A stretch of DNA of 24,000 bases from Blastocatellia bacterium (GTDB lineage Bacteria; Acidobacteriota; Blastocatellia; Pyrinomonadales; Pyrinomonadaceae): the NCBI GenBank assembly GCA_016789265.1, contig JAEUQK010000021.1:1-24000 (forward strand). The letters run 5' to 3'. The position numbers and the translations under genes were made by a program. Shown here one piece after another: positions 4,289 to 21,900 of this stretch (positions are counted from its first letter, which is position 1; every line of letters begins with the position of its first letter). Below the pieces are notes generated by a model. The model was not told the DNA's origin, made no database searches, and saw only the letters and a program-made list of their open reading frames with translations.

Positions 4289-4371
4289 TATTTTTGCACC
4301 CCGTTCCAACGGCTCGGTGCCGCCGGTAAAGTGCCTTAGTTTCTTGCCAACTCCTCTCTTATCGCCCGTCT

Positions 4372-4786: not shown

Positions 4787-4799
4787 GATCTCCTCCTCT

Positions 4800-5105: not shown

Positions 5106-5293
5106 ATCTAAGTTCCTCCTTATGTTTTTCTTTTTGTTTTTGTTCTCTGCGTTGCTTGCAGATCCCCCAGGGCACGAAGGGAACAAAGGTGCCTTGGGAG
5201 AACTGCAAACAAACGCGACAGGAGGAATAGGCGAAGAAAAAGCTAAATTAGCGAAAGTTAGCTGAGGAAGAAAGAGCCAAAAGAAGAATGGAA

Positions 5294-6502: not shown

Positions 6503-6948
6503 GGCGGTGAATACAATGGTCTTGCTCCGGCCAACCCTCTGCTATCACCACTAACCTGAAACCCCTTCCATTTCAAAATTGAGATCGTCACGTACCTCCC
6601 CGTTCGCTGAACCGATATATATCCTTTTTTCCTTAGCCTATTGAGGTGCAACTGTATGGTACGCAGCGAATAACCGGTGTCCTCGTGCATCGACAATTGA
6701 GTACGGCGAACTACACCGTTTTTGCGGTTTGAATACATTAACAAATACAGGTAAGTCCAAATGGCGGGGCCCATCGCCTGGCGGTGTTTGCTGTTAGGAT
6801 CAGCCACAAGGCCGCGCCAAACCGGTGACCACCAACTTGGCGGCTTTCGATACGCCTGATTCTCGGTTCGGCTGCCGTAGAGTGACGCCGACCGATTTCG
6901 TAGCAGGGAACCGGCGGTTCGAAATGAAGAATTGTTTGGTGAAGGCAT
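6499..6948 (-). CDS. Winged-helix DNA-binding protein (first gene of the backbone operon; possible Rep/regulator)
   Basis: The C-terminal 80 aa, WTYLYLLMYSNRKNGVVRRTQLSMHEDTGYSLRTIQLHLNRLRKKGYISVQRTGRYVTISI, fit the wHTH pattern (helix-turn-helix plus beta wing). It is translationally coupled to the ATPase. Confidence 0.55.
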   Translation of the reverse strand: MPSPNNSSFRTAGSLLRNRSASLYGSRTENQAYRKPPSWWSPVWRGLVADPNSKHRQAMGPAIWTYLYLLMYSNRKNGVVRRTQLSMHEDTGYSLRTIQLHLNRLRKKGYISVQRTGRYVTISILKWKGFQVSGDSRGLAGARPLYSPP

Positions 6949-6950
6949 AA

Positions 6951-6979
6951 AAGGTGAGGTTATTCCTTAATCTCACCTT
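6951..6979. promoter_or_regulatory. 8-bp perfect inverted repeat abutting the start of the backbone operon
   Basis: AAGGTGAG (6951-6958) / CTCACCTT (6972-6979) with a 13-nt spacer, 3 nt from ATG 6948. It could be an operator or a 5' leader hairpin. No functional evidence. Confidence 0.3.
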
Positions 6980-7342
6980 AACAGGATCGATTCAGACTCG
7001 GTAGGTTGAAAAAACCGACAGTTTTTTGGAAATCAGTCGGTAGAAAGACACTTTAGTTATTATTTTTTTATTTACTTTATAGCTAGTTCCGCTAAGCAGG
7101 GAAATAACCAATTTTAAGAGCGAATTTGTCTTTAGCCTAGCGACAAAAAGTGCAGATTTGTGAATCATCTACATGCAAAAATGAGGTTCTTTTCGTGCTG
7201 AATTTGCGACAAAAATCCCGGAATAGGGTGGTGTTCGGTACGTGCAGTGTAAATGTCAGTTATAATTTCGCGAGTTGGATTGTATTCAAGGAGAAATCGT
7301 TCCATGTAGTAATGTAACAGATTAAGGATTCGTGCGAGGATA

Positions 7343-7984
7343 ATGAATACTAAAACCGAGATAGAAGAGGGAAGAGTAAACAACGAACGACAATTCCATG
7401 TCATATATTTGACCGGCGCCCCAGCCTCGGGAAAGAGTACGCTGGTCGAACTGTTAGAAGGAAACTTTCAGCCCATGAAGACCTTTGTATACAGTCGCGT
7501 TTTGGCAGACTATTTAAGGGAGAAATCTGTTCGTCAATATTCACAAGATCACCTTCGCGAGAAGTCAGCGCAACTCATAACTCCCGACGATATAGAAATC
7601 GTGGATACCCGGCTTCTTGACTTCGTTACGGAGAATGCGAAAAAGGCTCATATTGTTATTGACTCGCATGCGGTAACCAAGGAAACGTACGGCTTCAGAG
7701 TGACGCCATTTTCGCTAGAACAGTTGAGGAAACTGAGTCCAACTCTAATTTTTGTCCTCTATACCGCTCCTTCCGTGATTTTGAACAGGATAAAGAATAA
7801 CAGTCAAGGCAGGCCGACCGTCTCGGAGTTTGAAGCCGGGTTTCATTCCGAGCTTCAAGCAACCGTTGCTTTAATTTACGGTATTCAGATAGGAATACCG
7901 GTATATTTCTTGGACAGTGACCGACCGTCTGATGATCTCGTAAGCGAAGTCGTAAAGCGAATTGAACGGGCTGCTGGAAAATAA
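7343..7984 (+). CDS. P-loop nucleotide kinase resembling archaeal-type adenylate kinase (AdkA-like)
   Basis: Walker A LTGAPASGKST. The order of blocks is as I recall it in archaeal AdkA: P-loop, then IVIDSHAVTKETYGFRVTPF (compare VDTHxxVxTPxGYLPGLP), then PTLIFVLYTAPSVILNRIKN..QGRP (compare LIxVxExxxxEILxRRxxDxxRxRD). GAGGA lies 2 nt (TA) upstream of the ATG. Confidence 0.5.
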   Translation: MNTKTEIEEGRVNNERQFHVIYLTGAPASGKSTLVELLEGNFQPMKTFVYSRVLADYLREKSVRQYSQDHLREKSAQLITPDDIEIVDTRLLDFVTENAKKAHIVIDSHAVTKETYGFRVTPFSLEQLRKLSPTLIFVLYTAPSVILNRIKNNSQGRPTVSEFEAGFHSELQATVALIYGIQIGIPVYFLDSDRPSDDLVSEVVKRIERAAGK

Positions 7985-8005
7985 CTGGAAGCCGAAGCAA
8001 TGTAA

Positions 8006-8650
8006 TTATGCGTGGTCATTTACCCGGCTTTTCGTTGTACGGCACACAGGGACCTCTTGGGCATTCTTTAGTATTACAAAATACGGTTCAATCAGTTCGG
8101 CAAGGATGGCTACATCGTACACTGACTCACTTTCCATCTCGATGTCTCTTCGCTCAACTATTGCCGTTACTTGAGATGCCGCAACCGGTCGTCCGGTTCT
8201 CAGGTTACTAAGCTGCTGAAAACCAATCGTGAATTTGCGTTGTAATGGAACTATTGGGGTTGCGCTGTAGCAAACGAGAGCGAAATGATGACGCTTCGGG
8301 GTTTCCGGGTCGAACCTGCTCGTTACAAGAGAGTGTCGGGGAATTGCAAACCTCCTTCCATCTATGGCTTCAGCCTCAGTCCACATGACAACAGCGGGAG
8401 GACTTACGTCCTTTTGTTTTGGCTCCGTCTTAATCGGGCTGAAGATCACTTGCGGGCGAGCAGTATGCTGCATTAGTTCAAGGATCGAAGGACCGATTGC
8501 GTTCCCGATTCCCCACATGAATATACCGCCGTTTGCCAACCTTTCTTTTTCTTTTCTATTGAGAATGTGTTCGACCGGCTCGGCAGCCTCTCCACCGAAT
8601 CTCGTCCAACAGAACAGGCGGGGCAGGCTTTCGACTGTTTGATTTTCCAT
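8006..8650 (-). CDS. Hypothetical protein, unrecognised family (paralogue 1 of 2 in this window)
   Basis: The 214-aa ORF has no recognisable motif. It aligns by eye with the 205-aa product of 10629-11246: HILNRKEKERLANGGIFMWGIGNAIGP vs DIIKRKTQEIEQTGYGLWGYGGSTCHP; IDGRRFAIP vs IDGLHWVAIP; HFALV vs RYALV; LAELIEPYFVILKN vs IAEIVEPYAVFVRN. Confidence 0.6.
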   Translation of the reverse strand: MENQTVESLPRLFCWTRFGGEAAEPVEHILNRKEKERLANGGIFMWGIGNAIGPSILELMQHTARPQVIFSPIKTEPKQKDVSPPAVVMWTEAEAIDGRRFAIPRHSLVTSRFDPETPKRHHFALVCYSATPIVPLQRKFTIGFQQLSNLRTGRPVAASQVTAIVERRDIEMESESVYDVAILAELIEPYFVILKNAQEVPVCRTTKSRVNDHA

Positions 8651-8686
8651 TTTTCTCAGTATGCATTAATATGCACTAGTATGCAA
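8644..8686. promoter_or_regulatory. Candidate back-to-back divergent promoters with a triple ATGCA repeat (candidate operator)
   Basis: Only 30 bp separate ATG 8650 (-) from ATG 8681 (+). On the plus strand, TTTCCA (8644-8649), a 17-bp spacer and TAATAT (8667-8672) end 8 nt before the ATG, implying a leaderless or near-leaderless XRE mRNA. On the minus strand, TTGCAT (8686-8681), 17 bp and CATACT end 7 nt before ATG 8650. The motif TATGCA occurs three times (8660-8665, 8670-8675, 8680-8685). Confidence 0.35.
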
Positions 8687-9016
8687 GAAGGCTCGTTTGC
8701 AGACCGACTTAAGGAGTTCATGGAGGCTAACCGCCTAACCCAGGAGGCCATTGCAAATGTAGCAAAGGTTAGCCAGTCATCTGTGTCGAGGGCTTTAAGG
8801 CGAAATTCAGTGCGGCATGGCAAGGCGGGCGCCAAACTATTCATTTATATGCAACAACACTTAAGCGCAGGCTTTGTAAGTCAGGGTAAAGGTAAGGTTG
8901 TTGAGGCCTTCGAGTCGATTTGGGATGGCTCGGAGGAACATGCGACGGCCATTGCTAGGATAATCAAGGCTTCTGATGGTTTACGGCCAGCCGAACATTC
9001 GAAGGAGGGCGACTAA
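8681..9016 (+). CDS. XRE-family helix-turn-helix transcriptional regulator
   Basis: From ATG 8681: MQEGSFADRLKEFMEANRLTQEAIANVAKVSQSSVSRALRR, a classic XRE/cI-type HTH. The track's earlier start at 8567 would overlap the divergent gene. Its stop overlaps the next start (TAATG at 9014-9018). Confidence 0.7.
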   Translation: MQEGSFADRLKEFMEANRLTQEAIANVAKVSQSSVSRALRRNSVRHGKAGAKLFIYMQQHLSAGFVSQGKGKVVEAFESIWDGSEEHATAIARIIKASDGLRPAEHSKEGD

Positions 9017-10026
9017 TGCTTCACGATGACGCCGCGACGTTTCGAAAACGACTAAGCGATCTAGGACTTAGTGACTCGGTTATTGATGCAGCGTGGCCGG
9101 ATTGGTGGAGCGACGACGCAGAGGCATCACCCTCAGCCCGTGCCGAACTGCGCTACTCCCTAGCTAGAAAGCTCGGATTGGAACCTCATTCCCTCCTCGA
9201 AGATAAGGAGATTCCGCGATTTATTTGGAAGGAGCCAGCTCAGTTTAAACATCTGTCCGGAGAAACTGATGGTGAGAAATGGGCACTGACCTCCTTCGGT
9301 ACTGCATTAGGCAAGATACTCCTGCGGGGATCTTCCACGCCGGCATTTCAAGGTACGAGGACTGCATTAGAATTCCGGGCAGCGATTCTGGGAAATCAGA
9401 CATATGTGCGATTCGTTGACCTTCTTTCGCTTTGTTGGTCCATCGGAATACCGACAGTGCATTTGCGAGTTTTTCCTCTTCCGCGGAAGCGGATGGCCGC
9501 GATGAGCGTGAGTGTGGGAACGAGCCATGCGATTTTACTCGGCAAGGACGCGCTCTATCCACCACAGATCGCCTTCTATCTAGCACATGAACTGGCCCAC
9601 ATATCCCTCAATCACTTGAAGGACAACGAAGTTCTGGTAGATCTGGAGCAAGATGTCCCCTCCGACTTACATGAGGAAATGGACTCGGAGGAAAGAGCTG
9701 CCGACGCATTCGCGCTAGAGCTTTTAACAGGAGTCCCGGACCCCGAAGTCGTCCCGATAGGACCGGGCAGTGGATCGCGCAGCCTCGCGAAAGCAGTACT
9801 GGACGCCGCCCCTGATCTTCATATTGAACCTGGCACGTTAGCCTTATGCTACGGCTTTTCCACCGGCGCTTGGGCGACCGCGATGGGTGCTTTGCCCTAT
9901 ATCTACGGAGCACCACGAGAAGTTTGGCGAGAGGTCAACAGTATCGCGCTAGAGCAACTCTCCCTATCTGCTCTTCCACTTGACACGACCCTCTATCTAC
10001 GAAAAGTCCTTGGCGAGGTGGGTTAG
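9016..10026 (+). CDS. ImmA/IrrE-family (COG2856) zinc metallopeptidase
   Basis: HEXXH motif in FYLAHELAHISLNH. The downstream third ligand/helix EERAADAFALELL is typical of ImmA/IrrE. AAGGAGGG lies 7 nt upstream. It is coupled to the XRE gene. Confidence 0.8.
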   Translation: MLHDDAATFRKRLSDLGLSDSVIDAAWPDWWSDDAEASPSARAELRYSLARKLGLEPHSLLEDKEIPRFIWKEPAQFKHLSGETDGEKWALTSFGTALGKILLRGSSTPAFQGTRTALEFRAAILGNQTYVRFVDLLSLCWSIGIPTVHLRVFPLPRKRMAAMSVSVGTSHAILLGKDALYPPQIAFYLAHELAHISLNHLKDNEVLVDLEQDVPSDLHEEMDSEERAADAFALELLTGVPDPEVVPIGPGSGSRSLAKAVLDAAPDLHIEPGTLALCYGFSTGAWATAMGALPYIYGAPREVWREVNSIALEQLSLSALPLDTTLYLRKVLGEVG

Positions 10027-10027
10027 A

Positions 10028-10672
10028 ATGCAAGTGCTCGTAGATAACGACATTTTGGTGAAAGGCGCCTGTTATGGCTTGTTCGAGGAGCTTTTTGGCC
10101 AGTCGTCGCAACACAATGAAGAACTGGGAGTCCTTGGGGCAGCAAAGTTTGTTGTTGCGAAAGCGATTCAGAGTATCCGGCTCCAGGGCGATCCTGAAAG
10201 AGGAATCGAAAGACTTAAGATTTTCCTTGAAAGATGCACCTGCGTGGAACCGACCGACGAGGAACAGAATCTGGCTGCCGAATTTGAGCTTCAGGCACAA
10301 CAAGCAGGTGTTGCACTGGATTCGGGTGAAAGTCAGTTATGTGCGGTGTTAATTGTGCGAGCACTTCCCTTGTTACATACAGGCGATAAACGAGCGATTC
10401 AGGCGTTGGAGGAATTGCTAACGTGCCATCAAAAGTTACAATCACTGTGCGGGAAAGTCCTATGTTTAGAGCAATTGGTCCTAAGCTGCACTTCAAAAGA
10501 AAATCTCAAGTTCATTCGCGCGGCTATCTGCTCAGAGCCCGATGTAGACAAAGCACTTTCTATCTCGTTCAGCTGTAAGAGCAAAGACACAACCTTTGAG
10601 ATAGTGGCGGAGGGGCTAAACAGTTACATCAACTACCTGCGTCAACAGGCTCCGCAGGTCCTTGCGAGCTAG
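10028..10672 (+). CDS. PIN-like domain protein (putative nuclease), third gene of the XRE-ImmA operon
   Basis: Starts at ATG 10028, 1 nt after the ImmA stop, with GAGGTGGG upstream. The N-terminus MQVLVDNDILVKG fits PIN strand 1 with an acidic residue. Later acidic positions also fit PIN topology: EEQNLAAEFE, LDSGESQLCAVLI and LLHTGDKRAIQAL. The assignment is from motif spacing only. Confidence 0.45.
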   Translation: MQVLVDNDILVKGACYGLFEELFGQSSQHNEELGVLGAAKFVVAKAIQSIRLQGDPERGIERLKIFLERCTCVEPTDEEQNLAAEFELQAQQAGVALDSGESQLCAVLIVRALPLLHTGDKRAIQALEELLTCHQKLQSLCGKVLCLEQLVLSCTSKENLKFIRAAICSEPDVDKALSISFSCKSKDTTFEIVAEGLNSYINYLRQQAPQVLAS

Positions 10673-11246
10673 GTATGCGATTACGGACGAATACAGCATA
10701 CGGCTCAACGATCTCGGCAATCAGCCCTATTTGGACGGTTCTCGCAGGGCCACGATGATCGTCATTGTCGGAAATCGTTAGACAGGCCTTGTCTACGCGA
10801 CCGCTGATGTATTTGCCTCCAGGTACCCCTAGACTGTTGCCCAACGCTACTGCTGTTCTATCGAGTGGCAATTTGAATTCTTCCCTGCGGAGGTCTTTGA
10901 TCACAAGAGCATAACGAGAACCACGTACATTGATAACTTTCGGTATGGCTACCCAATGCAAACCGTCGATGGAAAGTTCGTCCGCTCTTATGGGCTCGGC
11001 AAAGTGTTTGGACTCCATAGGCTCCATCGCTAAATATATTCGCCCGCCCTGTCGAGCATAGCCTTTCGCGAAGGGCTGGACCATTGTCTGAGGGTGGCAG
11101 GTACTTCCTCCGTAACCCCACAATCCGTACCCCGTTTGTTCAATCTCCTGTGTCTTACGTTTTATGATGTCCTCTAGGGATTCCTGAGCGTGAGTGCCGA
11201 CCTTCATGTACAGTACGCCTTGGCCAGGTGTAATGATGTTGCCCAT
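10629..11246 (-). CDS. Hypothetical protein, unrecognised family (paralogue 2), adjacent to the DUF43 transferase
   Basis: The 205-aa ORF has its ATG (11246-11244) directly next to the TAA stop of the upstream gene (11249-11247). It is similar to the 8006-8650 product (see that entry). Its 3' end overlaps the convergent PIN-like gene by 44 nt. Confidence 0.6.
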   Translation of the reverse strand: MGNIITPGQGVLYMKVGTHAQESLEDIIKRKTQEIEQTGYGLWGYGGSTCHPQTMVQPFAKGYARQGGRIYLAMEPMESKHFAEPIRADELSIDGLHWVAIPKVINVRGSRYALVIKDLRREEFKLPLDRTAVALGNSLGVPGGKYISGRVDKACLTISDNDDHRGPARTVQIGLIAEIVEPYAVFVRNRIPSSQGPAEPVDAGS

Positions 11247-12077
11247 TTATATAGACTCCAGTAATTCTAATTTGTATTCATCTTCGTGCGCCTTGCCGTA
11301 ATCCAAGCGTTTAATCTCGCGGACGTATCGCACCCGTGGAGGGGTCTCTGCCCCGTAGAAATTCTTCAATCGTTCCGGATCGGTGATTGCTTCGCTCGTC
11401 GACTTCGGCTTTGCGCCAGGTAGCGATTTGAAGAGAAGATTACACGACCGAAGATCAGGTGCGTCGTCCAAATGGTAGGAGTGTAGGCGCGACGCCATCT
11501 TCTGCACGAAAAAACCTCTACAAATCGCAAACTCCTGGACATTAGCGAGAACTTGTTTCGCCCACTCCCGCTCGGGGTCATCGGCAATGACGACCAGCCC
11601 TTCGCCATCATACGATATAGCTTCCATACCACGTTCCATGAAGACCTTGACGCTTTCTCCGGCATTGCTTGCCCCCCATGGCGGGTTAGTGTAAAAGCAG
11701 TCAAAATCGAAGGGTCCGGGAAACGGCTCTAGGCAGTTGTATAGGACCGCACTGAGATTGTCGAGCCGTTCGCTGTCCGCAAAGCGTTCCACCGCCGAGC
11801 AAATCCGCTCGTCGAAATCGAAGAGGGTGATTTGAGATGGCCCACGGTTTACGATCCCACGGGCATACAAGTATGCGACACAAACACTAATCGCGTCGCC
11901 GTCGCCGATAAAGGCGAGGCGATTTCCGTTTGCCCAGCGAGCCACCAGCTCACTCTGAAGAAGCATGTCGCCTGCCTTCATGTAAATCTGGTCGAACTCG
12001 CGCAGAGGCCGGGGCCGATTTTGCACGACATCGGAGATTGCGTTTATTGCTGCTCTAAGATCAATGTCTTCCGGCAT
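11247..12077 (-). CDS. DUF43 / BpsA-family (branched-chain polyamine synthase-like) SAM- or dcSAM-dependent transferase; start uncertain
   Basis: Family blocks: NRLAFIGDGDAISVCVAY (compare GDDDLTS), ITLFDFDERI (compare VxDIDER) and FDCFYTNPPWG (compare TDPPYT; also the N/DPPY/W motif IV of amino-methyltransferases). I give the conservative core from ATG 12077 (MPEDIDLRAAINA...). The ORF stays open to ATG 12125 and TTG 12260. No SD precedes any of these. TATACT (12094-12089) lies 11 nt upstream of ATG 12077. Confidence 0.6.
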   Translation of the reverse strand: MPEDIDLRAAINAISDVVQNRPRPLREFDQIYMKAGDMLLQSELVARWANGNRLAFIGDGDAISVCVAYLYARGIVNRGPSQITLFDFDERICSAVERFADSERLDNLSAVLYNCLEPFPGPFDFDCFYTNPPWGASNAGESVKVFMERGMEAISYDGEGLVVIADDPEREWAKQVLANVQEFAICRGFFVQKMASRLHSYHLDDAPDLRSCNLLFKSLPGAKPKSTSEAITDPERLKNFYGAETPPRVRYVREIKRLDYGKAHEDEYKLELLESI

Positions 12078-12457
12078 TGCGACTGTCGAGTATACAATTA
12101 TTGTCCGCCAACGAAAAATCTCCATCTGCGCGGCCGTAAGAATTGAAAAGCCTCCTGATAGCCCGACAGAGAATGTCCCCGGCCTCAGTCCAGCCTTTTT
12201 CCCGATCGCTCGTAGATCCCTTCTTGGTTTCCCCACAGAGGTTGCGGATGGCGGGGTCAAATGGGCGGCGAAATGGACGCCGGCCAGATAGATGCGGACC
12301 GACGGCGCGAGAGGGCACTCCGGCGTACCTACTATAAAGATCTCTATCGTATTCGACCTGGTATGCTCAGATGATTCTGGAACTGACTTAAGAGTTTGTT
12401 CAGCCTCTAAGGGAACTCACTTGATAGTCATCACGGAAAATAGATCTAACTCCTCTA

Positions 12458-13627
12458 CTAAACATGACCCAAACTCGCGGTTAGGGCAGGCCTTCCCGAA
12501 AAAAAATCGTCAACTCGGGCTGTCAATTCGGACTTTTCCACCTCAGTTGCAAAGCTCGCGGAGATACTTTGGCTTGTAATCCTTCCCATACCTTCGACTG
12601 TGATAATCCCGGACTTAATCAAGTGTAAGAATTCATTGGATAGTGTAGTCGGCCCCAATAACACAGGGTCGTCAGTGTTGATTGTCACGCACAATCCCTT
12701 TTCCAAAAATTCCTTGACCGGATGATCGACGAAGGACCGTGCTACGCTCAGAATGATATTGCTAGTAGGACAGATCTCCATCGGGATCCGCAGTTCAGCA
12801 AGCGTGGCAAGAAGCTCCGGATCGTTGACCGCTCCAATCCCGTGTCCAATTCGGTCGACCTTGAGCTTGTCCAACGCTTCCCAAACTGATTTTGGATTGC
12901 CTGTCTCCCCCGAATGGACCGTTAGCGGGATACCCGCTGACTTTACGATCTCGCAAAAGTCTTGAAATAAATCGTTTGAATACCGATCTTCGTTTCCAGT
13001 GAGGTCAAGGCCCACAACAATATCTCGATTCGTAAGCGTGGACTCCGCAAGCTTCTGAAACCTGCGGCGGCGATCCGCAAGATCTCCCCACCGTTCGATG
13101 ACGCCACTGCGCCCAACACTGAGGATAATCTTGGCAACAGTCTTCGGAAAATCACGCCGGGCCACCTTTACCCCGGTTCTTATTGCATCGATGTATTCTT
13201 CGAGAGAAAGTGGAAGCAACGGGTTAAATTCTCTACTGTTCGGAGCAACACGAAATTCGACATAAATCACACCATCACGAGCCGCATCGGCGATTCCCCA
13301 ATATACGGCGTTATGAATGCCTCTCGGATCAGAAAATATCCCCTTGAAACCTGCCCAAATTCTTTTCCTTAGAAAATGTTCGTACCCATTTGGAACAGGT
13401 TTCGATAAGACGGAAGCTCTAGCTATTCTCTTAGGATCATTACCGAAACCGTTAAGTGTAATATTAAGCCTATTTGCGATATAGACGAGTACTTCTGGAC
13501 GAATTGATCCCACCAAATGCCGATGAAGATCAACTTTGGGTATTTCCGTTAGGGTACTCAGCGAAACACCGTCGAACGGCAATTCATGGGTTCCAATCGA
13601 TGGGTAGAAATCAAGCGGATGTGACAT
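12458..13627 (-). CDS. Adenosine/adenine-nucleotide deaminase (ADA family, PF00962-type)
   Basis: All canonical ADA metal and catalytic motifs are present: VDLHRHLVGS (HxH), LTVHSGE (HxGE), DRIGHG and VTINTDDP. The 389-aa ORF starts 5 nt after the stop of the upstream membrane-protein gene. Confidence 0.85.
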   Translation of the reverse strand: MSHPLDFYPSIGTHELPFDGVSLSTLTEIPKVDLHRHLVGSIRPEVLVYIANRLNITLNGFGNDPKRIARASVLSKPVPNGYEHFLRKRIWAGFKGIFSDPRGIHNAVYWGIADAARDGVIYVEFRVAPNSREFNPLLPLSLEEYIDAIRTGVKVARRDFPKTVAKIILSVGRSGVIERWGDLADRRRRFQKLAESTLTNRDIVVGLDLTGNEDRYSNDLFQDFCEIVKSAGIPLTVHSGETGNPKSVWEALDKLKVDRIGHGIGAVNDPELLATLAELRIPMEICPTSNIILSVARSFVDHPVKEFLEKGLCVTINTDDPVLLGPTTLSNEFLHLIKSGIITVEGMGRITSQSISASFATEVEKSELTARVDDFFSGRPALTASLGHV

Positions 13628-13632
13628 AGGAA

Positions 13633-14682
13633 TTACCGATTCTCTTCTGCCTTAAGGCCCGAAGCAAAGCTGTCACCAATCGCGTCGATCAATTCTGACG
13701 ACTTGCCTGAATATATTAGAGCATCACAGACTGGCTGAAAAATATCAAACCAAAATTGAACTAGGGACTGTTGAAAATATCCTCGACGCTCGGTTGCGTG
13801 AACCGTGAGCACCCCATAGACTTCACTTATTTTTTCTTTTGGAAAGTCGGCCACGGCTGGTACACAAATCATTGAAGCATAGTCTTTCTTTTGCCCGGTT
13901 CTCATCTCCTCGAACTGAAGATCCTCACCACCATTCTCGCAGACTATTGGCTCACGTTTTGCCCAACATTTTCCCGCCGCTCCTTCGTTTAGATCAAATT
14001 TTGGAGTCTTCGGTTCGCCCTCGTTCGGGAATGCTCTATACCTCTTCTCGAGTATGTCAGGTCCATTCTCTTGTGAGGTAACCGCGTAGAAACTTACGCC
14101 CATCTTGTCGTTATTCTCCCCGTCGGCATCCTTTGGTTTCTTGAAGATGTCCTCTTTTAGGATCTGCGAAACGCGACCTAGCGCCTGCTTCACCTTTTCC
14201 CTTCGAATATTGTCCGCCTGATTCAAAGCAGTTCTAATACTGTCGATATTCACATTTTTGCTCTCGATCAAACGTCTTAATTCGACGGTGAGACTATAGT
14301 TAGCCCTGTAACGTTCCCGAATGAAATCCGCCACGACATCGGGCATCGTACGACGCAGATGATTGTATCGATCCTGTTTCTCCAGTTCCGCTTTGAGTTT
14401 ATCGTTCTCGGCCGTCAACTCACCTCTGAGAATGTCCATGGCGCTCTTTGACACTCTATTACTAATCGCACGAAGCAAGGCAACAATGATTATGCTCAGC
14501 AATACTAAAAGCAACACCTGAACCCAGCCGGGTGCGGGCTTTACGGCTTCGTGTCCAAATGCAACAAGTAGTGCAATTAGTAAATGGGATGCCACACTTA
14601 GGAGGTTATCAAGTTTCATACAATTGTCACTCGACTGATTCTTCGAAGCTAAACGAAGCGATGAATCCTTAGCTATTCTCAC
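13633..14682 (-). CDS. Membrane protein: 2 TM helices, coiled coil and a C-terminal GAF-like domain
   Basis: TM segments LLSVASHLLIALLVAFG and WVQVLLLVLLSIIIVALL. Heptad-like RGELTAENDKLKAELEKQDR. The C-terminal ~150 aa fit a GAF pattern: NEGAAGKCWAKREPIVCEN ... YASMICVPAV ... VYGVLTVHATERRGYF. The track start at 14682 is GTG; the alternative ATG at 14619 (MKLDNLL...) is equally possible. Confidence 0.5.
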   Translation of the reverse strand: MRIAKDSSLRLASKNQSSDNCMKLDNLLSVASHLLIALLVAFGHEAVKPAPGWVQVLLLVLLSIIIVALLRAISNRVSKSAMDILRGELTAENDKLKAELEKQDRYNHLRRTMPDVVADFIRERYRANYSLTVELRRLIESKNVNIDSIRTALNQADNIRREKVKQALGRVSQILKEDIFKKPKDADGENNDKMGVSFYAVTSQENGPDILEKRYRAFPNEGEPKTPKFDLNEGAAGKCWAKREPIVCENGGEDLQFEEMRTGQKKDYASMICVPAVADFPKEKISEVYGVLTVHATERRGYFQQSLVQFWFDIFQPVCDALIYSGKSSELIDAIGDSFASGLKAEENR

Positions 14683-14879
14683 GCTAAATATAGATTTGAC
14701 CTGAAGTTACGTCAACCCCTGGTCGTTTCCAACTATTCGATTACGAACCAAAGCTTCAGAGTTACAATCTTCGCGGTAATCCGCAGACCGATAACTGAGA
14801 AATCTTCCGTAAGCTCCCCTTAAGAACATACAGATCAAAAGCAGACGTTTTCTTTCATCATGGAGGATGGAGGAGACGG

Positions 14880-14951
14880 ATGAAAAGGTCGAGATTTAGT
14901 GAGACGCAGGTGGTGGCGATCTTGAAGGAAGCGGAGGCTGGGAAGGCTGTA
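14880..14951 (+). pseudogene. Remnant of an IS3-family transposase orfA (first ~24 codons only)
   Basis: MKRSRFSETQVVAILKEAEAGKAV matches the conserved N-terminus of IS3-family OrfA (MKKSRFTExQIxxILKEAEAG...), with GGAGGA upstream. After codon ~24 the reading frame becomes AT-rich with no resemblance. A possible IS3-type terminal sequence, TGACCTGAAGTTACG, starts at 14697 (low confidence). Confidence 0.5.
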
Positions 14952-15252
14952 ACGAAAAGATACATTAGGAAAAAAAGCGCTTGTAAGATGTCAACGACGA
15001 ACAACTCGAACTCAATGGATTTCGCACATACTCAAAAAAAGAGGAAGCATCCGATGGACACTTCCGTCTATTCTTCCGTTCATGAGAACAGTTTTCAATG
15101 GGAATAGGGATCTGTTTCCCCACACAGCCGAAGGTGTGGAGTATTTATCAAAATAGACATCGGCCAAGCCTGCTTCTCTCGGGCCAACCGGGCTGCTGCT
15201 CGGCAAAAACCCGCGGTATCTCAAGATCCAAGAGTTATAGAAATCTTCTAAT

Positions 15253-17091
15253 TCACCCAGCTTTCAATGGCGCCAGTTCGCCTGCGTCAATGATGAGCGG
15301 GCCCTCGATGAAATCCTGTCCCAACCCCTCACTGGGTGTTATCGCGGGCGTATCCTGACCAGCATTCGGGTCGCCATATTCGGGATTATGTTTCCAGTGA
15401 TCACGTTGCGGTGACTTGTCTATTCCAATCGGGTAGATCGTCAGCTTATCACCCTCGATCTTGAGCCTGAGAAAATGTCGATAACTGTCGAGCCGAAGAG
15501 CGCTGAACGCACCGTTGGAGTGATCTCCCCAGAACCAAGAGGCGGTGGTCAGGTAAAGTCCCCATAAGAATCCGCCGACAAATCCCAGGACTATCATTCC
15601 AGCAAGAAATCCAAGAAAATTAAGCATTTCGCCAGCTGTATAGATTGATTGGATTCCGAAAAAATTAAGCAGCGTCGAAACCATCGCAGTTCCGAATAAG
15701 ACCATAGCAACATGAACCAAGCCATGAAGGCCTCCAATGAAGACCCTTCGCCGCCTTGAGCTTATTTCGGCCGATAATATAAATACGATCGGAAGCAAAA
15801 AAAAGATAATTAGGAACACGGGCGACGATGCAAGAATTCGAACCTGGTTCCAGTAAAGATTTAAGAACGTATCATTCTCGCCCACGGCAGCGTATCCGCT
15901 CCACGCCAACATCGCTAAGGCACAGATGCAATAGAGGCCCGCGAGTAGAAAGCAGAACTCCCAGTTCCGCCCAGGAAATCGGATGTTCCCGAGGGCAAGT
16001 CTTCTGCTTGCGTGTTTAGGTGGATAAAAAGCCCTTGTAGCACCGTCAGTCCCTATCCCTACCTCGAGCGTATCGAACTCGCCTTTGATGCCCGGCCACT
16101 TTGCGCTTATTGTGTCGTTTAGATGATGCGTTGGGTGGAGAAATGCACCCCCACCGCCGGCAGTGATGAAATTCGTTCCTGTTTCCTTGCTGACATAGCG
16201 ACTGTAGTGATGAAGGTCACCTGAGATAACCAGCGGGACCTTTGCATTTGGGCACTCATCGTGAAGGATTTTAGCGATGTAATGTAGAGCCCTGTAGTAC
16301 TCTTCCTGTCCTTTTTTGTCGCCCGCAATATCGGCCTTGAGCCAGGTTGGAACCGATGCGCAGAGAATGATCTTTGCACCAGGCCGCATCTTCTTCGCCA
16401 CAGCGGCAAAGTAATCCGCCTGAGGCGCGTCAATATCCTCACCCAACTGCGAATCGAATCCCCAGATCCACCAGTTCTGTCCTAAGTGAATTGCAAAGTA
16501 GCTTCGCCGTTGCGACGCGATCCAGCTTCCCAAACTAGTAGCGCGCCCGCGACAAAAGTTAGCCAGGAAGAGAGTGAGGCCATCATACCAATCATGATTG
16601 CCGGGTATGAGATAGAGTTTTGGATGATCTCCGTTTCTTTCGTAAGGAAATGCAGCCCGATAAGGAAGCTTCATCCGCACTTCATATTCGTCCCGGCTGG
16701 CGTCCGGGTAAACTTGGTCACCGCCCATTATCAGACAATCGGCTCGCGGCAAAGTAATATCGCCGACGGGTAATTGCTTTTGGCCGATCATATAAGCGAT
16801 CGCATACGTTGAATCGAAACCGTCGCCGAGATCCGCGACGTAATCCACCCAGATCTCTTGCTTGCCCCCGCATAAACCGTCTTCGCCACGACAGCAATCT
16901 TCGATCAGCGTATCGTGATTGATCGGCGAATCGAGAGCAGCGTGAACTAGTCTCCGGTCCGCGTACTGTCCAAACAGTGTTGAATCAATTACCTTTTTGG
17001 CGGTTTTTGCCAACACGAGTGGGCTAAACCAGTGAACCATTCCGCGGTACTCACTCGAATCATTCAGGTCTGGGGGGTATTTTCTTTTCAT
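15253..17091 (-). CDS. Calcineurin-like metallophosphoesterase with a C-terminal multi-TM domain
   Basis: MPE motifs appear in order: VADLGDGFDS, IMGGDQVYP, IPGNHDWYDG, SGDLHHY, GGGGAFLHPTH. At least four hydrophobic helices follow (e.g. FLLAGLYCICALAMLAW, VFLIIFFLLPIVFILSA, LNFLGFLAGMIVLGFVGGFLWGLYL), then a soluble tail. Confidence 0.8.
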   Translation of the reverse strand: MKRKYPPDLNDSSEYRGMVHWFSPLVLAKTAKKVIDSTLFGQYADRRLVHAALDSPINHDTLIEDCCRGEDGLCGGKQEIWVDYVADLGDGFDSTYAIAYMIGQKQLPVGDITLPRADCLIMGGDQVYPDASRDEYEVRMKLPYRAAFPYERNGDHPKLYLIPGNHDWYDGLTLFLANFCRGRATSLGSWIASQRRSYFAIHLGQNWWIWGFDSQLGEDIDAPQADYFAAVAKKMRPGAKIILCASVPTWLKADIAGDKKGQEEYYRALHYIAKILHDECPNAKVPLVISGDLHHYSRYVSKETGTNFITAGGGGAFLHPTHHLNDTISAKWPGIKGEFDTLEVGIGTDGATRAFYPPKHASRRLALGNIRFPGRNWEFCFLLAGLYCICALAMLAWSGYAAVGENDTFLNLYWNQVRILASSPVFLIIFFLLPIVFILSAEISSRRRRVFIGGLHGLVHVAMVLFGTAMVSTLLNFFGIQSIYTAGEMLNFLGFLAGMIVLGFVGGFLWGLYLTTASWFWGDHSNGAFSALRLDSYRHFLRLKIEGDKLTIYPIGIDKSPQRDHWKHNPEYGDPNAGQDTPAITPSEGLGQDFIEGPLIIDAGELAPLKAG

Positions 17092-17133: not shown

Positions 17134-18360
17134 TTAGTGGCCGGAGCGGGTGAATCGCAGAATCTCGATATTCCCCGTTCTGGTTACGCAGATGCGATCT
17201 TTCTGCCGCTCCTCCGGGAGGCCTGTCGATACTGTGGCCCGCGCGGAGGACGTCGCATTGGAAACGCGGTTCAAGCGCACCGTGAAGTCTCGAAAGAACT
17301 TTCCGATGAACAGCCGGCTAGGATCAACATAGTTGACAGGATCGTTCGCACGGTACGTGTACAAGTTCAAGGTCTCCCGTTGGACTGTCGCCCGACAAAT
17401 TGACTCCAGGTTTTGTTGAGATGCTGTTGCTTCAGTTTCCACAGGAACGTGGGCAAGAGCGCCGCTGTGCGAATTCGAGACCGCTTTCGCCGTCCTTCTC
17501 GTAACCGGTGTAGCCTTTCCGAACCTCGTCATCGCCGGACGTGTAACCGATGCCGCTGACCCTTGCCGAAGTAACTATCTCATCGCCAAATGCCCCGTAA
17601 TCTTTCCTATCCTTCACCGCACCAAGCTGATCCGTCACAAGCCGCGTGCTGCCAAGATGATCGGTTGTCAAATAGCTTGTTTGCGGACTCTCAGACGTTT
17701 GAGTCGAGTACTCAGCCACAAGTTGTCCGCTTCCATTGTAAATGAAAATGGTGGTCTCTGTGCCCGCGATCTTCTTTACTCTTTTTCCGTCCCCGTCATA
17801 GCGGTATTCGCCGATCGTCGTGTCCTGATCGTTCTGTACCTCGATCTGATGGTTCTCGGCGTCGTATATGAAATCCTTTCCTTCGGCATCGCCCGTAACG
17901 TTACCCGCCGCGTCATATTGCCAGCCGCTGCTTGTGAAGCGGTTTGTCGAGGTCGAGATCGTGGGGTTGCAGATCGCCTCCGTGCAGCTTCCGAGAGTGG
18001 TGGTGTTCGAAGCATCGTAACGACGGTTGCCGTAACGGTCCATCGTGAATGTCTGCTTCCAGGTCTGGCCGCTGTTGATCGTCTCAGTCGCGGAGAGAAG
18101 GCGATTCAGATCATCATAGGTATAGGTTTGTGTAGCCGTAAAGCCGTTTGTCGTCCCGACGTTCGGAACCGTGATCTTTTGTTCCCTCAAACTCCCGTTG
18201 TTCTTTGTATTGTTTCCGTAACCTAGCTCAAGCTTCAGAAGATTCTGGCTGTTCGGACCAAGCCCGAGCCCGATCTGTGTGACCTGTCCGCGGGTGTTGT
18301 ATAGGGATGTTTCCCAGCGTCCGTTGCCAAGCCGCATCGCTGTCACGGCCCGTCTGGCAC
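17134..18360 (-). pseudogene. Orphan RHS C-terminal cassette (YD repeats, core end and a 58-aa tip), with no N-terminus and an interrupted frame
   Basis: ORF 17432-18346 aligns with the last ~330 aa of the main RHS core. MRLGNGRWE matches LRLGNGLWE, QTWKQTFTMDRYGNR matches QTWKQGFGYDRYGNR, DQDTTIGEYRYDGDGKRVKK matches DQDTTIGHYYYDGEGRRVKK, and GYEKDGESGLEFAQ matches GYQKDEETGLDFAE. It then hits TGA at 17432-17434. The core-end motif LNLYTYRANDPVNYVDPSRL is in another frame (ORF 17134-17532). No start codon or RBS lies at the 5' homology boundary (~18360). Confidence 0.7.
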
Positions 18361-18390
18361 TGGTTTTGTTCGTAGGCTTTCCGATTCTGA

Positions 18391-18963
18391 TTAGGAACAG
18401 CCAGCAAATTGAGGTGAAACAGTGACGACCAATTTGTTACTGTTGAGAGCTAGCTCCACCCAAGCGTAGAAGTCAGGTGTATTTGCGAGCTTGCCAAGCC
18501 CGTCGATTAGAGTTTTCTCCAATCGAGGGATGTCGTACCTTAGATCCACCTTATGTGTTCCACTGAGGACGGACCTCGACAAATTTCCGAGCTTCGCCGC
18601 GTGTAAGTTACTGAATCCCGTAAACGTGACCTTTTCAATTTCATAAACTGGAGGATTCTTTTTATACTTTGTAATTAAGGTTAAATCGTACCTATCAGTA
18701 CCCACTAGCTTTGAAATCCGATAATTAACGTTATCGAAAAGTCCCGACATTAAGAGATGGCGTTCAAAGCAAGCGATCTCCGCAGAATGGTTGATCCTAT
18801 CCCTGGAAATCGTCCGATTAGCAAGCTTACGCAAATATCGGGTGTCGGCATCAAGTAAGATATAGACGTTCGCGATCTTATATTCAGACTTCGGAACCTG
18901 ATCCGGAACTTGCCCGAATAACCATATATTGAGCATAATAACTATCAATACTGCCTTTATCAT
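18391..18963 (-). CDS. Candidate RHS immunity protein with an N-terminal signal peptide or anchor
   Basis: It lies immediately downstream of the rhs stop (TGA 18985-18983). AGGAGG lies 5 nt upstream of ATG 18963 (the track's 18969 start is GTG). The N-terminus MIKAVLIVIMLNIWLFGQ is hydrophobic. The gene is clearly AT-rich: the 60-nt line starting at 18661 has 20 G+C. The function is inferred from position only. Confidence 0.45.
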   Translation of the reverse strand: MIKAVLIVIMLNIWLFGQVPDQVPKSEYKIANVYILLDADTRYLRKLANRTISRDRINHSAEIACFERHLLMSGLFDNVNYRISKLVGTDRYDLTLITKYKKNPPVYEIEKVTFTGFSNLHAAKLGNLSRSVLSGTHKVDLRYDIPRLEKTLIDGLGKLANTPDFYAWVELALNSNKLVVTVSPQFAGCS

Positions 18964-18982
18964 GTACACCTCCTACTACACT

Positions 18983-21900
18983 TCATTCTTCCTCGGGTCT
19001 CTTTCTAACCGGGACGTTGCGAACCTCGATTCGTTTATCCCCACAAGTCCTACAGTTCCGATCCTCCGTTGAAAACGTGACAGTCTTTGGTGGACTATTC
19101 GGGTCTTTGCCAGCCTTAACCTGAGGGTCAGTCACCGTGACCTTGAAGCCAATAGCGCCCGTTGCGTTTCGGTCCATGTTACTCCTTGGCAAAACTCGGT
19201 ATGTCTCTACCTTGGTTACTTCTACCGCCTCATTTTTTGCTCCCTTAACCGTAACCGTTGTTTCCCTTGATGACTCGATCTGCTTTGCAGTTGCAAGCGT
19301 ACCCTCAGACGTTCTATCTTTAGTTTCCTCAACGGCTTTCGTTTTATCATCGGGCTCCGTTCCATAGTCAACTGGTTCTGTCACGGCGTAGTCTCCCGGA
19401 TTAACCCCATCCGCGGGCTTGTTGATAAGAAATTTCGATATTATTTGAAACTCGCCACCGATGGGCACGGCAGTCCCATATGCGTCTTTATCGAGATACT
19501 TGACGTTGACCTCAAGCCTGGGGGCGTCCTTGTTGATCTCGGTATTTATTCTAATTTCCTCTTCTTTCTTTTCCACCTTTTTCCCTGCCTGTAATCCAGT
19601 TGAGTCCGTCAGAATCAGTGGGCGGTTCATTACATAAACATACCGATTAAATGTCTGTGGATCGACGGATTTGCCCGAAGCTAATAGAGGATCGATGGCA
19701 GTGAATCTTCCATGTAGGTTTTGGTACATTCGGGCTTCGGCGAAATCGAGGCCGGTTTCTTCGTCTTTCTGGTAGCCCGTGAACTTTTGTCGCACGCGGT
19801 CGGTCTGCCCGTACTTTTGTGTGGTCGTGCGATAGGTTCCGTCTGCTGCGATCTCCTCACCGAAAGGCATGAAGTCACGCCGGGAAACAACCGCACCCCA
19901 GGCATTCACGATCACTCTAGGCGATCCAAGTTGGTCTGTGACAGTGTAACTTGTCGTCGGATTTGAAGCGGGAGTCTCGGTCGAATACTCAGCTATCAGT
20001 CTTCCTAGCGAATAAACGAATATGGTCGTTCCGGCAGCCGTCGCTTTCTTTACTCTTCTTCCTTCTCCGTCGTAATAGTAGTGGCCGATCGTGGTGTCTT
20101 GATCATCTTTCACCTCGGTCTGCTTATTATTACCGTCGAAGGTAAACTGTCTTCCTTCGGCATCCACGGTCATATTTCCGTTCTCGTCAAAAGTGTAACC
20201 ATCGGTCGAAAGCAAGTGATTGGTATCATCATCGACGCCAGGATTTGTTACGTCGTTAAGCGTCAATTGGGTCGACCCAGAATATTTCTCGTACGAAGTT
20301 CGGTTGCCGTATCGATCGTAACCAAACCCTTGCTTCCAAGTCTGGTTGCTGTTGTTAGTTTCCTTTGCCTCGGTCAGACGCGAGAGCGAATCATATTTAA
20401 AGGTCTGAACAAACGGATTCGCCAGACCGTTATATGACAATGTCTGCTTGCCGATGTCGCCATTGTTTTTCGAAGTGTCAACGGTACCGTTAGTCTGCAG
20501 TTCGCCGTACTCATATGTGTGCTTCCATAGATCTCCGGACGCAGAACCATGACCCATTAGAAATTCGGTCACCTGTAGCCTGTTATTGATCTTTGCAGCT
20601 TCCCAAAGGCCATTGCCTAATCGAAGTTTTTCTATGCGTCCGTCTGCCATATACATGAACGTATTAGCATAGGTGCGCTCGGTAGCCGAAGAGGTTGCCT
20701 GACCGTAGATACGAGAAATCTGACCGTCGCCGTCAAAGCTCGTCTTTACGACACGTCCACTAATCGGATATATCTCCTGTTTCAAGTCGCCCGCGAGCGT
20801 GTACTCATAGCTGGAGGTATAAGTTGTGCCATCAGTTATCTGTTGGGCCTGCAAAACCCGACCCATTACGTCAAATTGAGTGTATTTGGATTCCGAAAGG
20901 CTATTGCTGACCTTGGTCGTCTTACCTTTCGAATAGTCTGGGACCGATGACAGCCCGGCCCCGTCATAATAAAACGTTACTGTTGGCGTTCCATCTTCAT
21001 ACGTCTTTGTTTCGACGCGACTGAGTTCATCATATGTGAATGTGACAGTTGTATCTTTAGCATCCGTTGTCGTCAATACATTGCCATTATTGTCGTAGGT
21101 CATGCCGATCGACCAACTGTTATTGTCAGGATTGCCGCTAGTATTTAGCGCGGAATTAGCGCTCTGTTCCGGCTGTTTAACCCGCAATGTCCGGCCTAGC
21201 GAATCATACATAAAGTAACGATTCTGATCGCCCTGATTCACTCTTACCATTAGCCCGAGTGTGTTGTAGTAATAATTAGTCGGTTGGTTCGGGCTGCTGA
21301 CGGTGCCGAGTTGGTTGCTCGAGTTTGGTTCATCGACGCGGGTGAGCCAGCCGAGAGCGTTTGTGATCGAGCGGCGGAGCTTTCCGGCCTGGTCGGTGAC
21401 GGTTACGGCATTGCCGGAATAGCTCGTCGTTGCCTCGGCGCCGTCAGGTGTTTCGACGGATACAACTCGACCAAGCGCATCGAAGGTGCTGGTTGTCCAG
21501 AGAAGTGACTCACTTCGAGACGGACGATAAGGATTGCTTGTGCGATAGACGCGGCCGAGAGCATCATATTCGGTTTTTACGGAAACATAGTCCCCATCTT
21601 TGTAATCGCGAGTCTCGACCGTTCTTCCGAGACCGTCGTAATAACTTTCCGTCCGGGCCAGGTTGTCATTCAAGGTAAATAGATCAGATGTCTTTTCAAC
21701 GCGCCTGTTTGCGTCGTCGTATTCGATGCTCGTTTGTATTTCGTTGGCGGTACCGATCGCTGAAACGGTCTGCGTCGGACGATCAAGAGCGTCGTTGTAG
21801 ATCGTCTTCGAAACAATTCCATTGACATCTTGAGCATTTACCATTTGTCCGGTGAAGTAATCGTATTGAATGTATGATGTCCAACTCAAAGGGTTAGTTG

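Follow-up and report, generated by a model that had tools for sequence, protein, structure and literature searches.

A stretch of 24,000 nucleotides from a Blastocatellia bacterium of the phylum Acidobacteriota (contig JAEUQK010000021.1, positions 1 to 24,000; the window) carries on its minus strand two adjoining open reading frames (ORFs), which the ORF list places at 14682..13633 (GTG start, 349 aa) and 13627..12458 (ATG start, 389 aa). They encode a membrane protein with two predicted transmembrane (TM) helices and a GAF domain, here called TM-GAF, and an enzyme of the adenosine deaminase (ADA) family. Both ORFs are real, since they are long, have strong homologues and lie far beyond chance expectation. 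An earlier note on this DNA had read the membrane protein from the GTG at 14682. However, the ATG at 14619 is most likely its start and yields 328 aa, because the promoter match ends at 14687 and would put the GTG at the transcription start, because close homologues open with MK(L/F)(D/N) as the ATG form does, and because the GenBank protein MBL8124185.1 has 328 aa. The deaminase shares a 90% cluster with MBL8124184.1, 'adenosine deaminase'; the GenBank names of both genes are generic. With its own promoter-like site and a terminator-like hairpin that closes the upstream gene, the pair looks like a transcription unit of its own, whose upstream edge the hairpin marks. Both signals are consensus matches, and the region contains four promoter-like matches where 3.8 would be expected from chance. 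The ATG of the deaminase at 13627 follows the TM-GAF stop codon, which ends at 13633, so closely that translational coupling is plausible. The description of the two genes as a tightly coupled unit in the earlier note thus holds, and short spacing or a 4-nt overlap is conserved at other loci. No Rfam family and no tRNA were detected when the window was scanned for them. The features of the pair are compiled in Table 1.

Table 1. Features of the TM-GAF/ADA pair and its flanks (window coordinates)
Feature	Position	Strand	Basis or remark
Terminator-like hairpin and T-run, after the upstream metallophosphoesterase gene	15043..15065	-	consensus match only
Sigma-70-like promoter match TTGACG-17-TATATT, 10/12	14687..14715	-	consensus match only
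TM-GAF gene (328 aa and stop)	13633..14619	-	identical to MBL8124185.1 'GAF domain-containing protein [Blastocatellia bacterium]'
TM helix 1 (aa 6-26)	14542..14604	-	AF2 helix 6-26; hydropathy segment 3-24
TM helix 2 (aa 31-55)	14455..14529	-	AF2, hydropathy; unbroken into cytoplasmic stalk helix
Helical stalk / coiled-coil hairpin (aa 56-155)	14155..14454	-	AF2 helices 31-119, 125-155
Cytoplasmic GAF domain (aa 169-328)	13636..14115	-	Foldseek PDB, GAF_2/GAF Pfam matches, conserved columns
5-nt spacer, TM-GAF stop to ADA ATG	13628..13632	-	sequence reading
ADA-family deaminase gene (389 aa and stop)	12458..13627	-	clade A of the TM-GAF-partnered deaminases
HRHLV motif	13511..13525	-	H35, H37 metal ligands; V39 at the ribose-5'-OH-binding Asp position
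H238-S-G-E241	12905..12916	-	mouse His214, Glu217
H262	12842-12844	-	mouse His238 equivalent
D319-D320	12668..12673	-	mouse Asp295, Asp296

The AlphaFold2 (AF2) model of TM-GAF (pLDDT 77.9, pTM 0.65) consists of a long helix (residues 31-119), a return helix (125-155) and an alpha/beta domain (173-327) behind the first TM helix. Basic residues after TM helix 2 (RAISNRVSK) suggest, by sequence reading, that the stalk and the C-terminal domain are cytoplasmic. The GAF fold that the earlier note had assigned to this domain is confirmed for the predicted structure: the proposed Foldseek check returned GAF domains for 35 of the 35 best PDB matches and for nearly all of the top 50, with E-values down to 3.8e-7 and target TM-scores of 0.55-0.68. 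Examples are 1f5m and 3ksf of the free Met-sulfoxide reductase type, 9cxh, 5w10, PDE6C, Lcd1 with cAMP and NreA. The Pfam scores of the window protein are sub-threshold (GAF_2, 24.8 vs 28.6 bits; GAF, 20.3 vs 22.4 bits). GAF_2 is matched by 22 of 31 family members at E<0.01, and some, such as P0170 (38.0 bits) and P0155 (32.6 bits), pass the cut-off. A sequence search of the PDB with the GAF domain alone gave no match, and one with the family profile gave marginal GAF matches only (E 0.01-0.5). The motifs AGxAW, Q..Y.SM.CVP, GVLT.D and (Y)F recur in the GAF domain throughout the family, and GAF residues are kept down to 16-20% identity, whereas the TM sequence is not. NKFDE is the signature of cyclic-nucleotide-binding GAF domains of the PDE/CyaB type. 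In a crude motif test with the expression NK..F...DE it was found in 0 of 101 TM-GAF family members, and the cyclic-nucleotide ligand hinted at before gains no backing. No kinase, DNA-binding, enzymatic or transporter domain was detected in TM-GAF, so that the TM helices are its sole output. By analogy, a protein made up of TM helices and a cytoplasmic ligand-binding domain only would have the architecture of ligand-gated membrane effectors. Neither PADLOC 2.0 nor PHROGs gave a family for TM-GAF. In one protein retrieved by the search of representatives, P0155 (439 aa), the GAF domain and linker typical of the family follow an N-terminal domain that is not a membrane anchor and carries the motif NPNVFYEL; here a different effector may have been joined to the sensor. 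The similarity of this domain to the dNMP (deoxynucleoside monophosphate) N-glycosidases DNPH1/Rcl is non-significant (E 0.5-1.3) and is mentioned as a lead, not used as evidence.

The partner enzyme belongs to the ADA superfamily of TIM-barrel amidohydrolases. It matches the Pfam family A_deaminase (PF00962) at 2.7e-67 and 227.6 bits (cut-off 27) and TIGR01430 at 227.8 bits, just over the cut-off of 216.55. Its AF2 model (pLDDT 93.5) aligns with solved adenosine and adenine deaminases at target TM-scores of 0.86-0.89 and with the N6-methyl-AMP deaminases MAPDA/ADAL at 0.83-0.86; Foldseek alignments to Cad1 chains have a similar query coverage. In sequence it scores 144 bits with housekeeping ADAs, 75 bits with Cad1 (9c67, 9ebt) and 73-80 bits with MAPDA. 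All metal-binding and catalytic residues are present (H35, H37, H238, E241, H262, D319, D320), and the equivalents of the mouse ADA metal ligands and catalytic residues H35, H37, H238, E241, H262 and D319 are invariant. Of the 'complete adenosine deaminase' announced in the earlier note, the fold and the intact catalytic site therefore stand. The substrate site of the Add type does not, because its Asp is replaced.

In a residue-by-residue alignment the window enzyme reads HRHLVG where Salmonella Add reads HRHLDG, so that the Asp which binds the ribose 5'-OH is lost. Among 33 members of the clade to which the enzyme belongs (clade A), this position holds Val or Ile in 31 and Thr in 1, and no Asp or Glu is among the residues listed. 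Thr or Leu occupies it in other partnered lineages, and Val, Ile, Thr, Ser and Leu cover the TM-GAF-partnered ADAs as a whole. With the Asp of HxHLDG replaced, the enzyme lacks the residue that identifies a bona fide adenosine deaminase of the Add type. A Glu in the corresponding HxHxEG motif marks the adenine deaminases of the ADA family. It occurs in 78 of the 86 nearest unpartnered ADAs and in no partnered ADA shown; the window enzyme does not have this Glu and so does not show the mark of the adenine-deaminase type either. Furthermore, a Leu/Phe of the gate helix is replaced by a conserved Arg or Lys in clade A (R89 in the window enzyme). In MAPDA of Arabidopsis, Asn17, the equivalent of the ribose-5'-OH Asp, contacts the 5'-phosphate, and Val57-Phe58 touch the N6-methyl group (PMC6451127). 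The positions of Val57-Phe58 are taken by Phe85-Leu86 in the window enzyme, as in ordinary ADA. The loss of an acidic and the gain of a basic residue near the ribose-5' subsite would fit a phosphorylated substrate. Clade A also has a conserved N-terminal LPF motif, which is not present in the other two lineages of partnered deaminases (B and C, see below). Given its distinct lineage and the altered Asp position, the deaminase is not a housekeeping Add, in agreement with the earlier note.

The pairing is not peculiar to this genome. In 17 of 17 distinct loci recovered, mostly from metagenomic contigs, an ADA ORF adjoins a TM-GAF ORF (the window, L001/L020, L003, L004, L005, L006/7/15, L008, L009, L010/11, L012, L013, L014, L016, L017, L018, L019 and L021/22). 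Both gene orders occur and the flanks differ: TM-GAF comes first in seven loci, with spacings from a 4-nt overlap to 14 nt, ADA comes first in nine, two of them with purA in between, and in L018 a TM-GAF lies on both sides of the deaminase. The two L018 paralogues (3853-7942) are 19% identical to each other, one downstream and co-oriented with the ADA and the other divergent, and a GAP1-N1 protein of a GTPase-associated conflict system is encoded next to them. A word-index search retrieved 12 TM-GAF homologues, and a HMMER scan of 1.84 billion representatives retrieved 93 matches (clusters) at E <=1e-3. Most of the full-length matches, 300-390 aa long, begin with two predicted TM helices, continue with a helical linker and show the motifs conserved in the GAF domain. 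The similarity of the deaminases breaks sharply, with 34 clusters of clade A at 44-56% identity and the next at <=37%, and a TM-GAF homologue was found beside every clade A member whose context was inspected. Some of these partners are recognised only by the family hidden Markov model (L012, E=3e-19; L010, E=2e-9). The recovered loci include that of a distant TM-GAF, P0175, which is about 16% identical to that of the window and is encoded immediately downstream of an ADA. Pattern scans with the close and the distant family found no confirmed TM-GAF relative in 185,579 species-representative genomes, and no significant match was obtained in PLSDB plasmids (4 queries), INPHARED phages, IMG/VR or BFVD structures.

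While the type of pair is kept, the lineages that make it up are exchanged. TM-GAFs occur with no fewer than three ADA lineages: the window-like clade A, lineage B (L005, L018, L021) and lineage C (L017). In L010 and L012, clade A deaminases (53% and 44% identity) go with TM-GAFs that are 16-17% identical to that of the window, whereas in L005, L017 and L018 the TM-GAFs reach 35-41% identity beside ADAs of 27-29%. The partners show little co-evolution, with a Mantel r of 0.31 that was equalled or exceeded in 343 of 5000 permutations. Such exchange would fit coupling via a shared small molecule rather than a co-evolving protein interface. The only copy seen in decay is that of L004, where the ADA is intact but the TM-GAF gene is not (at 6001-7255 its N-terminus is replaced by unrelated sequence and it contains a frameshift); the reverse was seen in none of the loci. 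The lineages also differ around the base: in L005, L017, L018, L019 and L021 of lineages B and C, and in L012, the equivalent of mouse Asp296, which contacts the purine N7, is Asn (TDNP for TDDP), and in lineage B (L005, L018, L021) the Asn before TDNP is replaced by Cys (CTDNP). These exchanges point to a geometry of base recognition that may be unlike that of clade A.

The pair is horizontally mobile cargo, and in the window it rides on an element resembling integrative and conjugative elements (ICE-like), which the earlier note had not noticed. Flanking genes vary among the loci, and the sole recurring neighbour family is a TrwB/TraG-like coupling ATPase, encoded at 5294-6502 in the window and with homologues in L004, L012, L014 and L021. 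Genes for Replic_Relax, AlpA, an integrase or a resolvase go with it, and often there is a relaxase or an integrase. Mobile genes (TrwB-like, Replic_Relax, integrase or resolvase) are found in the window, L004, L010, L012, L014 and L021. In L021 the pair is the sole cargo between the coupling protein and the integrase. In L005 the pair is the sole content of a 2.4-kb cassette that has a full purA on one side and a diverged 3' remnant of purA on the other, which indicates an island inserted at the purA 3' end. The remnant is a 101-aa C-terminal piece, 60% identical to the full protein, and no integrase is kept there (5492-9636). In the window, the backbone of the element (1330-8650) encodes a ParB-like protein (657 aa), the coupling ATPase (402 aa), an HTH_36/RepL-like protein (149 aa) and an AAA_17 kinase-like protein (213 aa). 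The 24 kb contain no direct repeats >=18 nt, and the ends of the element therefore lie outside the window. The pair travels on mobile DNA of soil bacteria, Acidobacteriota and others.

Some loci contain a third gene. On an ICE-like element in L001/L020 and in L014, purA lies between ADA and TM-GAF; the two embedded PurA proteins have intact catalytic residues and are divergent, with 37-39% identity to the PurA of L005. The latter is a typical PurA, scores far over the PurA cut-offs and flanks the cassette. PurA was rejected as an obligatory third component because it is embedded in L001/L020 and L014 only and its adjacency in L005 results from the 3'-end insertion. On another contig (P0044) the order is ADA, a Nuc_deoxyrib_tr protein, a 365-aa protein and a second ADA. 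The 365-aa protein equals the TM-GAF family member P0136 in length and is a candidate member of that family. PurA acts on inosine monophosphate (IMP) and DNPH1-type enzymes act on dNMPs, and these optional genes therefore point, as far as their families suggest, to a chemistry of purine mononucleotides.

Among known systems, type II Metis provides the best analogy. In that system, degradation of the host genome by phages releases N6-methyl-dAMP (m6dAMP), and this nucleotide triggers the TM protein MisC. The phosphatase MisB, defined by the HAD family PF13419, is dispensable for defence; it removes basal m6dAMP and prevents self-toxicity (Osterman et al., bioRxiv 10.1101/2025.11.05.686725). Like type II Metis, the pair is a two-gene operon that combines a small multi-TM protein, without other output, with a small stand-alone nucleotide-metabolising enzyme that has no sensor domain. 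The cytoplasmic part of MisC binds a mononucleotide, as we propose for TM-GAF, and in both cases the enzyme family pairs with differing effector lineages. By composition the pair was rejected as a Metis system: an ADA takes the place of the HAD phosphatase, no HAD match being found in the pair, and TM-GAF takes the place of MisC. The description of MisC, with three TM helices and no annotated domain, sets it apart from TM-GAF, in which a long stalk joins two TM helices to a GAF domain. Still, the two systems may work alike. Another comparison is offered by MAPDA/ADAL1 (6ijm, 6ijn, 8qch), a small ADA-fold enzyme of monomer size whose 5'-OH-binding Asp is replaced so that the 5'-phosphate fits, and which disposes of an uncommon modified adenine mononucleotide by turning it into IMP. 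However, the replacement in MAPDA is Asn instead of Val, Ile, Thr, Ser or Leu, its Val-Phe contact to the N6-methyl group is Phe-Leu here, the sequence score is low (73-80 bits), and MAPDA is a eukaryotic housekeeping enzyme and not mobile. As for the membrane protein, the ligand-gated effectors PycTM, Cap15, Cam1 and Csx23 (from Pycsar, CBASS or type III CRISPR) also consist of TM helices and a cytoplasmic nucleotide-binding domain and nothing else, but GAF was not found reported as their sensor fold in the literature searched, and the adjoining partner here is a deaminase instead of a cyclase or CD-NTase.

Two further systems employ an ADA-superfamily deaminase. RADAR (RdrA and RdrB with or without RdrC/RdrD) is a mobile conflict locus as well, and some of its variants include a small membrane protein (PMC11676413). 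However, RdrB has about 850 aa compared to 389 aa here, and the membrane partner is a GAF protein and not SLATT or Csx27. The RdrB model NF041744 gives 33.1 bits against a cut-off of 800, the PADLOC RdrB model gives E=0.004 with about 35 residues covered, and no RdrA AAA+ ATPase is encoded beside the pair in the window or at any locus; RADAR was rejected on these grounds. Cad1 (CAAD) of type III CRISPR has a homologous ADA domain (CARF_ADA, 5.5e-42; PDB 9c67 and 9ebt, 75 bits) that is functionally tied to a nucleotide-binding sensor domain, as may be the case here. In contrast to the fused CARF of Cad1, the GAF sensor lies on a separate membrane protein, the CARF_ADA model is matched via its ADA part only (profile 253-595 of 605), and in sequence the window enzyme is closer to housekeeping ADAs than to Cad1. 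No Cas family was found among the window ORFs scanned and, given the lack of direct repeats, no CRISPR array in the 24 kb. With no RdrA, no CARF and no enzyme of RdrB size, the architecture is unlike both systems, as the earlier note had stated.

We place the pair, as a candidate, among the two-gene nucleotide-based conflict modules and tentatively favour, largely by analogy, a reading in which it forms a self-contained mobile module for abortive infection, defence or exclusion whose two proteins are linked via an adenine-derived small molecule. TM-GAF would be the effector. Its cytoplasmic GAF pocket would bind an adenine mononucleotide, possibly N6-modified or deoxy, the level of which would rise upon infection or DNA damage. 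Ligand binding, relayed by the long stalk, could then cause the two-helix anchor to oligomerise and to compromise the membrane. The stand-alone ADA would act constitutively, deaminating basal ligand to its inosine form and keeping the effector silent in healthy cells, a role that would correspond to that of MisB for MisC. In some variants, PurA, which converts IMP to adenylosuccinate, or a DNPH1/Nuc_deoxyrib_tr-like protein might dispose of or recycle the (d)IMP product. The size of the deaminase (about 385 aa) without a sensor domain makes it probable that it is constitutive and is thus not aimed at ATP, which would be toxic. The exchangeable lineages, the altered 5' subsite and the decay of L004, where TM-GAF was lost and ADA kept, are consistent with an effector and its cleaner. 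A role in defence is suggested by the mobile-element context only. The narrower form of this proposal, a danger-metabolite immune module in which GAF gates the two-helix effector on an adenine mononucleotide, ADA sets the threshold by conversion to the inosine form and PurA or DNPH1-like proteins are optional, is possible but more doubtful.

Several observations weigh against this interpretation. The PADLOC defence models match neither protein apart from the generic ADA domain, and known defence genes are not consistently adjacent to the pair. The fold search does not separate adenosine deaminase, adenine deaminase, MAPDA and Cad1, and a MAPDA-like N6-methyl pocket was not seen, Phe85-Leu86 giving no positive sign of N6-methyl specificity. 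Linkage over the whole family of 93 clusters is extrapolated, with one distant TM-GAF context inspected, and the argument from decay comes from a single locus. Finally, the module could serve the mobile element and not the host. No description of an ADA paired with a membrane GAF protein was found in the full-text literature searched, nor was GAF reported there as the sensor fold of ligand-gated TM defence effectors. Given its constant association on mobile DNA, we regard the pair as a credible and apparently undescribed candidate for a nucleotide-based conflict or defence module.

In the main rival explanation, the deaminase itself would be the effector. As in RADAR or Cad1, it would turn ATP/dATP, or the pool of adenylates, into inosine nucleotides and arrest the cell. 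TM-GAF, as a sensor or membrane anchor, would keep it inactive in the absence of a signal, for instance ligand binding or a disturbed membrane. ADA-family enzymes are proven defence effectors in both systems (PMC11645235), the ADA domain matches the CARF_ADA model at 5.5e-42, SLATT or Csx27 offer precedents for a small membrane partner, the close spacing of the two genes would suit a complex of their products, and the LPF motif of clade A could serve as a docking element. However, lineages B and C pair with TM-GAF without this motif, the freely reshuffled partners speak against a specific inhibitory interface, and the enzyme has the size of a housekeeping ADA, no regulatory domain and an RdrB score far under the cut-off. 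PurA and DNPH1-like proteins, moreover, have monophosphates as substrates, and poisoning with inosine triphosphate (ITP) would be reversed or circumvented by them. The conversion of ATP to ITP, to which the earlier note had drawn an analogy, is thus less likely than a role at the level of mononucleotides for a small stand-alone enzyme without sensor domain, and an effector deaminase appears unlikely to us. A function for the element, either as post-segregational killing with TM-GAF as toxin and ADA as metabolic antitoxin or as conjugal immunity or exclusion, for which the Nudix hydrolase Pif of pSAM2 is reportedly a precedent, would agree with the coupling ATPase as sole recurring neighbour family and with the exclusive cargo position of the pair in L021. 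On the other hand, L006, L008, L009, L013 and L017 show no conjugation genes within 6-7 kb, the cassette of L005 holds nothing besides the pair, and the mechanism of toxin and cleaner is common to this explanation and to the conflict module that we favour, the beneficiary alone being different. We consider it quite improbable.

A role in ordinary purine metabolism would make the enzyme a salvage or catabolic adenosine, adenine or AMP deaminase that is tuned or localised by a membrane GAF regulator, sometimes together with PurA in a bacterial purine-nucleotide cycle. The narrowly passed TIGR01430 cut-off, the GenBank name, the housekeeping ADAs as closest solved structures and the adjacency of PurA in L001, L014 and L005 fit this explanation. 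It is very unlikely nonetheless, considering that the substrate-binding Asp is lost, that TM-GAF has no kinase, DNA-binding or transporter output, that the pair sits on integrative or conjugative elements with varying flanks and that PurA adjoins it in L005 as an artefact of the integration site. The family is also very rare, with 93 clusters among 1.84 billion representatives, and was not found, at pattern level, in the species-representative genomes. The least probable explanation, in our estimate a highly improbable one, is counter-defence, in which the deaminase would inactivate adenine-based immune signals of the host (cyclic oligoadenylates, cGAMP-type or derived from ADP-ribose) and TM-GAF would be a sponge or sensor. 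The location on conjugative elements and the nucleotide binding of GAF domains in other proteins (PDE6 with cGMP, Lcd1 with cAMP) would suit such cargo, but ADA-family enzymes are not known to act on cyclic oligonucleotides, the NKFDE signature of the cyclic nucleotide type is not present, a sponge needs no membrane anchor, and PurA and DNPH1-like partners do not fit. Overall, element maintenance or transfer immunity, plain purine metabolism and counter-defence are less likely than the conflict module.

Some further genes of the window and of related loci are notable. Directly downstream of ADA (10629-12260, minus strand) lie a gene for a 337-aa protein with methyltransferase fold (BpsA_C, 1.7e-16; PADLOC mad2, 4.4e-08; 'TNPPWG' amino-methyltransferase-type motif) and, abutting it, a 205-aa ORF without family match; the two could be a separate two-gene system or a modifier of DNA or small molecules. 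Immediately upstream of the pair (15253-17091, minus strand) a 612-aa calcineurin-like metallophosphoesterase with C-terminal multi-TM region is encoded. The Metis effector MisA has the same phosphoesterase fold, and the window protein is without PUA domain. The methyltransferase-like protein, the 205-aa ORF and the metallophosphoesterase were rejected as parts of the module because they have no homologues at the other loci. In the 570-bp gap upstream of the pair, a 75-aa ORF on the plus strand (14880-15107) that begins MKRSRFSETQVVAILKEAEAG has no Pfam match. It resembles the N-terminus of the IS3-family transposase OrfA and is presumably an insertion sequence remnant. Three overlapping genes on the plus strand (8567-10672) encode an XRE-type helix-turn-helix protein (149 aa), an M78/ImmA-IrrE peptidase (336 aa; CapP-like, PADLOC 7e-07) and a 230-aa protein (phrog_15597, 3e-18), a set that looks like a regulator/protease switch of a mobile element or of a defence locus. 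The far end of the window (17432-23992, minus strand) is occupied by a large RHS-repeat protein (1669 aa, to the window edge), after which come an ORF of 192 aa and an RHS C-terminal fragment of 304 aa, and a homologous RHS gene lies close to the pair in L010/L011. Past the integrase of L021/L022 (10219-15627), HMUDK_hel, MazG_C, Nmad2 and M78 peptidase genes follow, families associated with nucleotide or DNA modification, and the same element carries a Dam-like methylase at 1838-2365.

The altered 5' subsite predicts a new substrate specificity in a very well studied enzyme family. Should the pair be metabolic instead, it would represent a rare ADA and PurA purine-nucleotide-cycle cassette on mobile DNA. 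If it is an immune or addiction module, deamination would serve to clear a trigger molecule, beyond the poisoning of nucleotide pools by RADAR and Cad1, and GAF would join CARF, SAVED, cNMP-binding and PUA domains as a sensor fold that gates membrane effectors. The recently proposed sensing of by-product mononucleotides as danger signals would then extend to uncultured soil phyla and their conjugative elements. The narrower danger-metabolite reading, if true, would mean that ADA enzymes serve immunity in a third way that differs in mechanism from the other two, acting as a safety valve and not as an effector, and would provide a deaminase-based counterpart of Metis on conjugative elements of Acidobacteriota and other soil bacteria.

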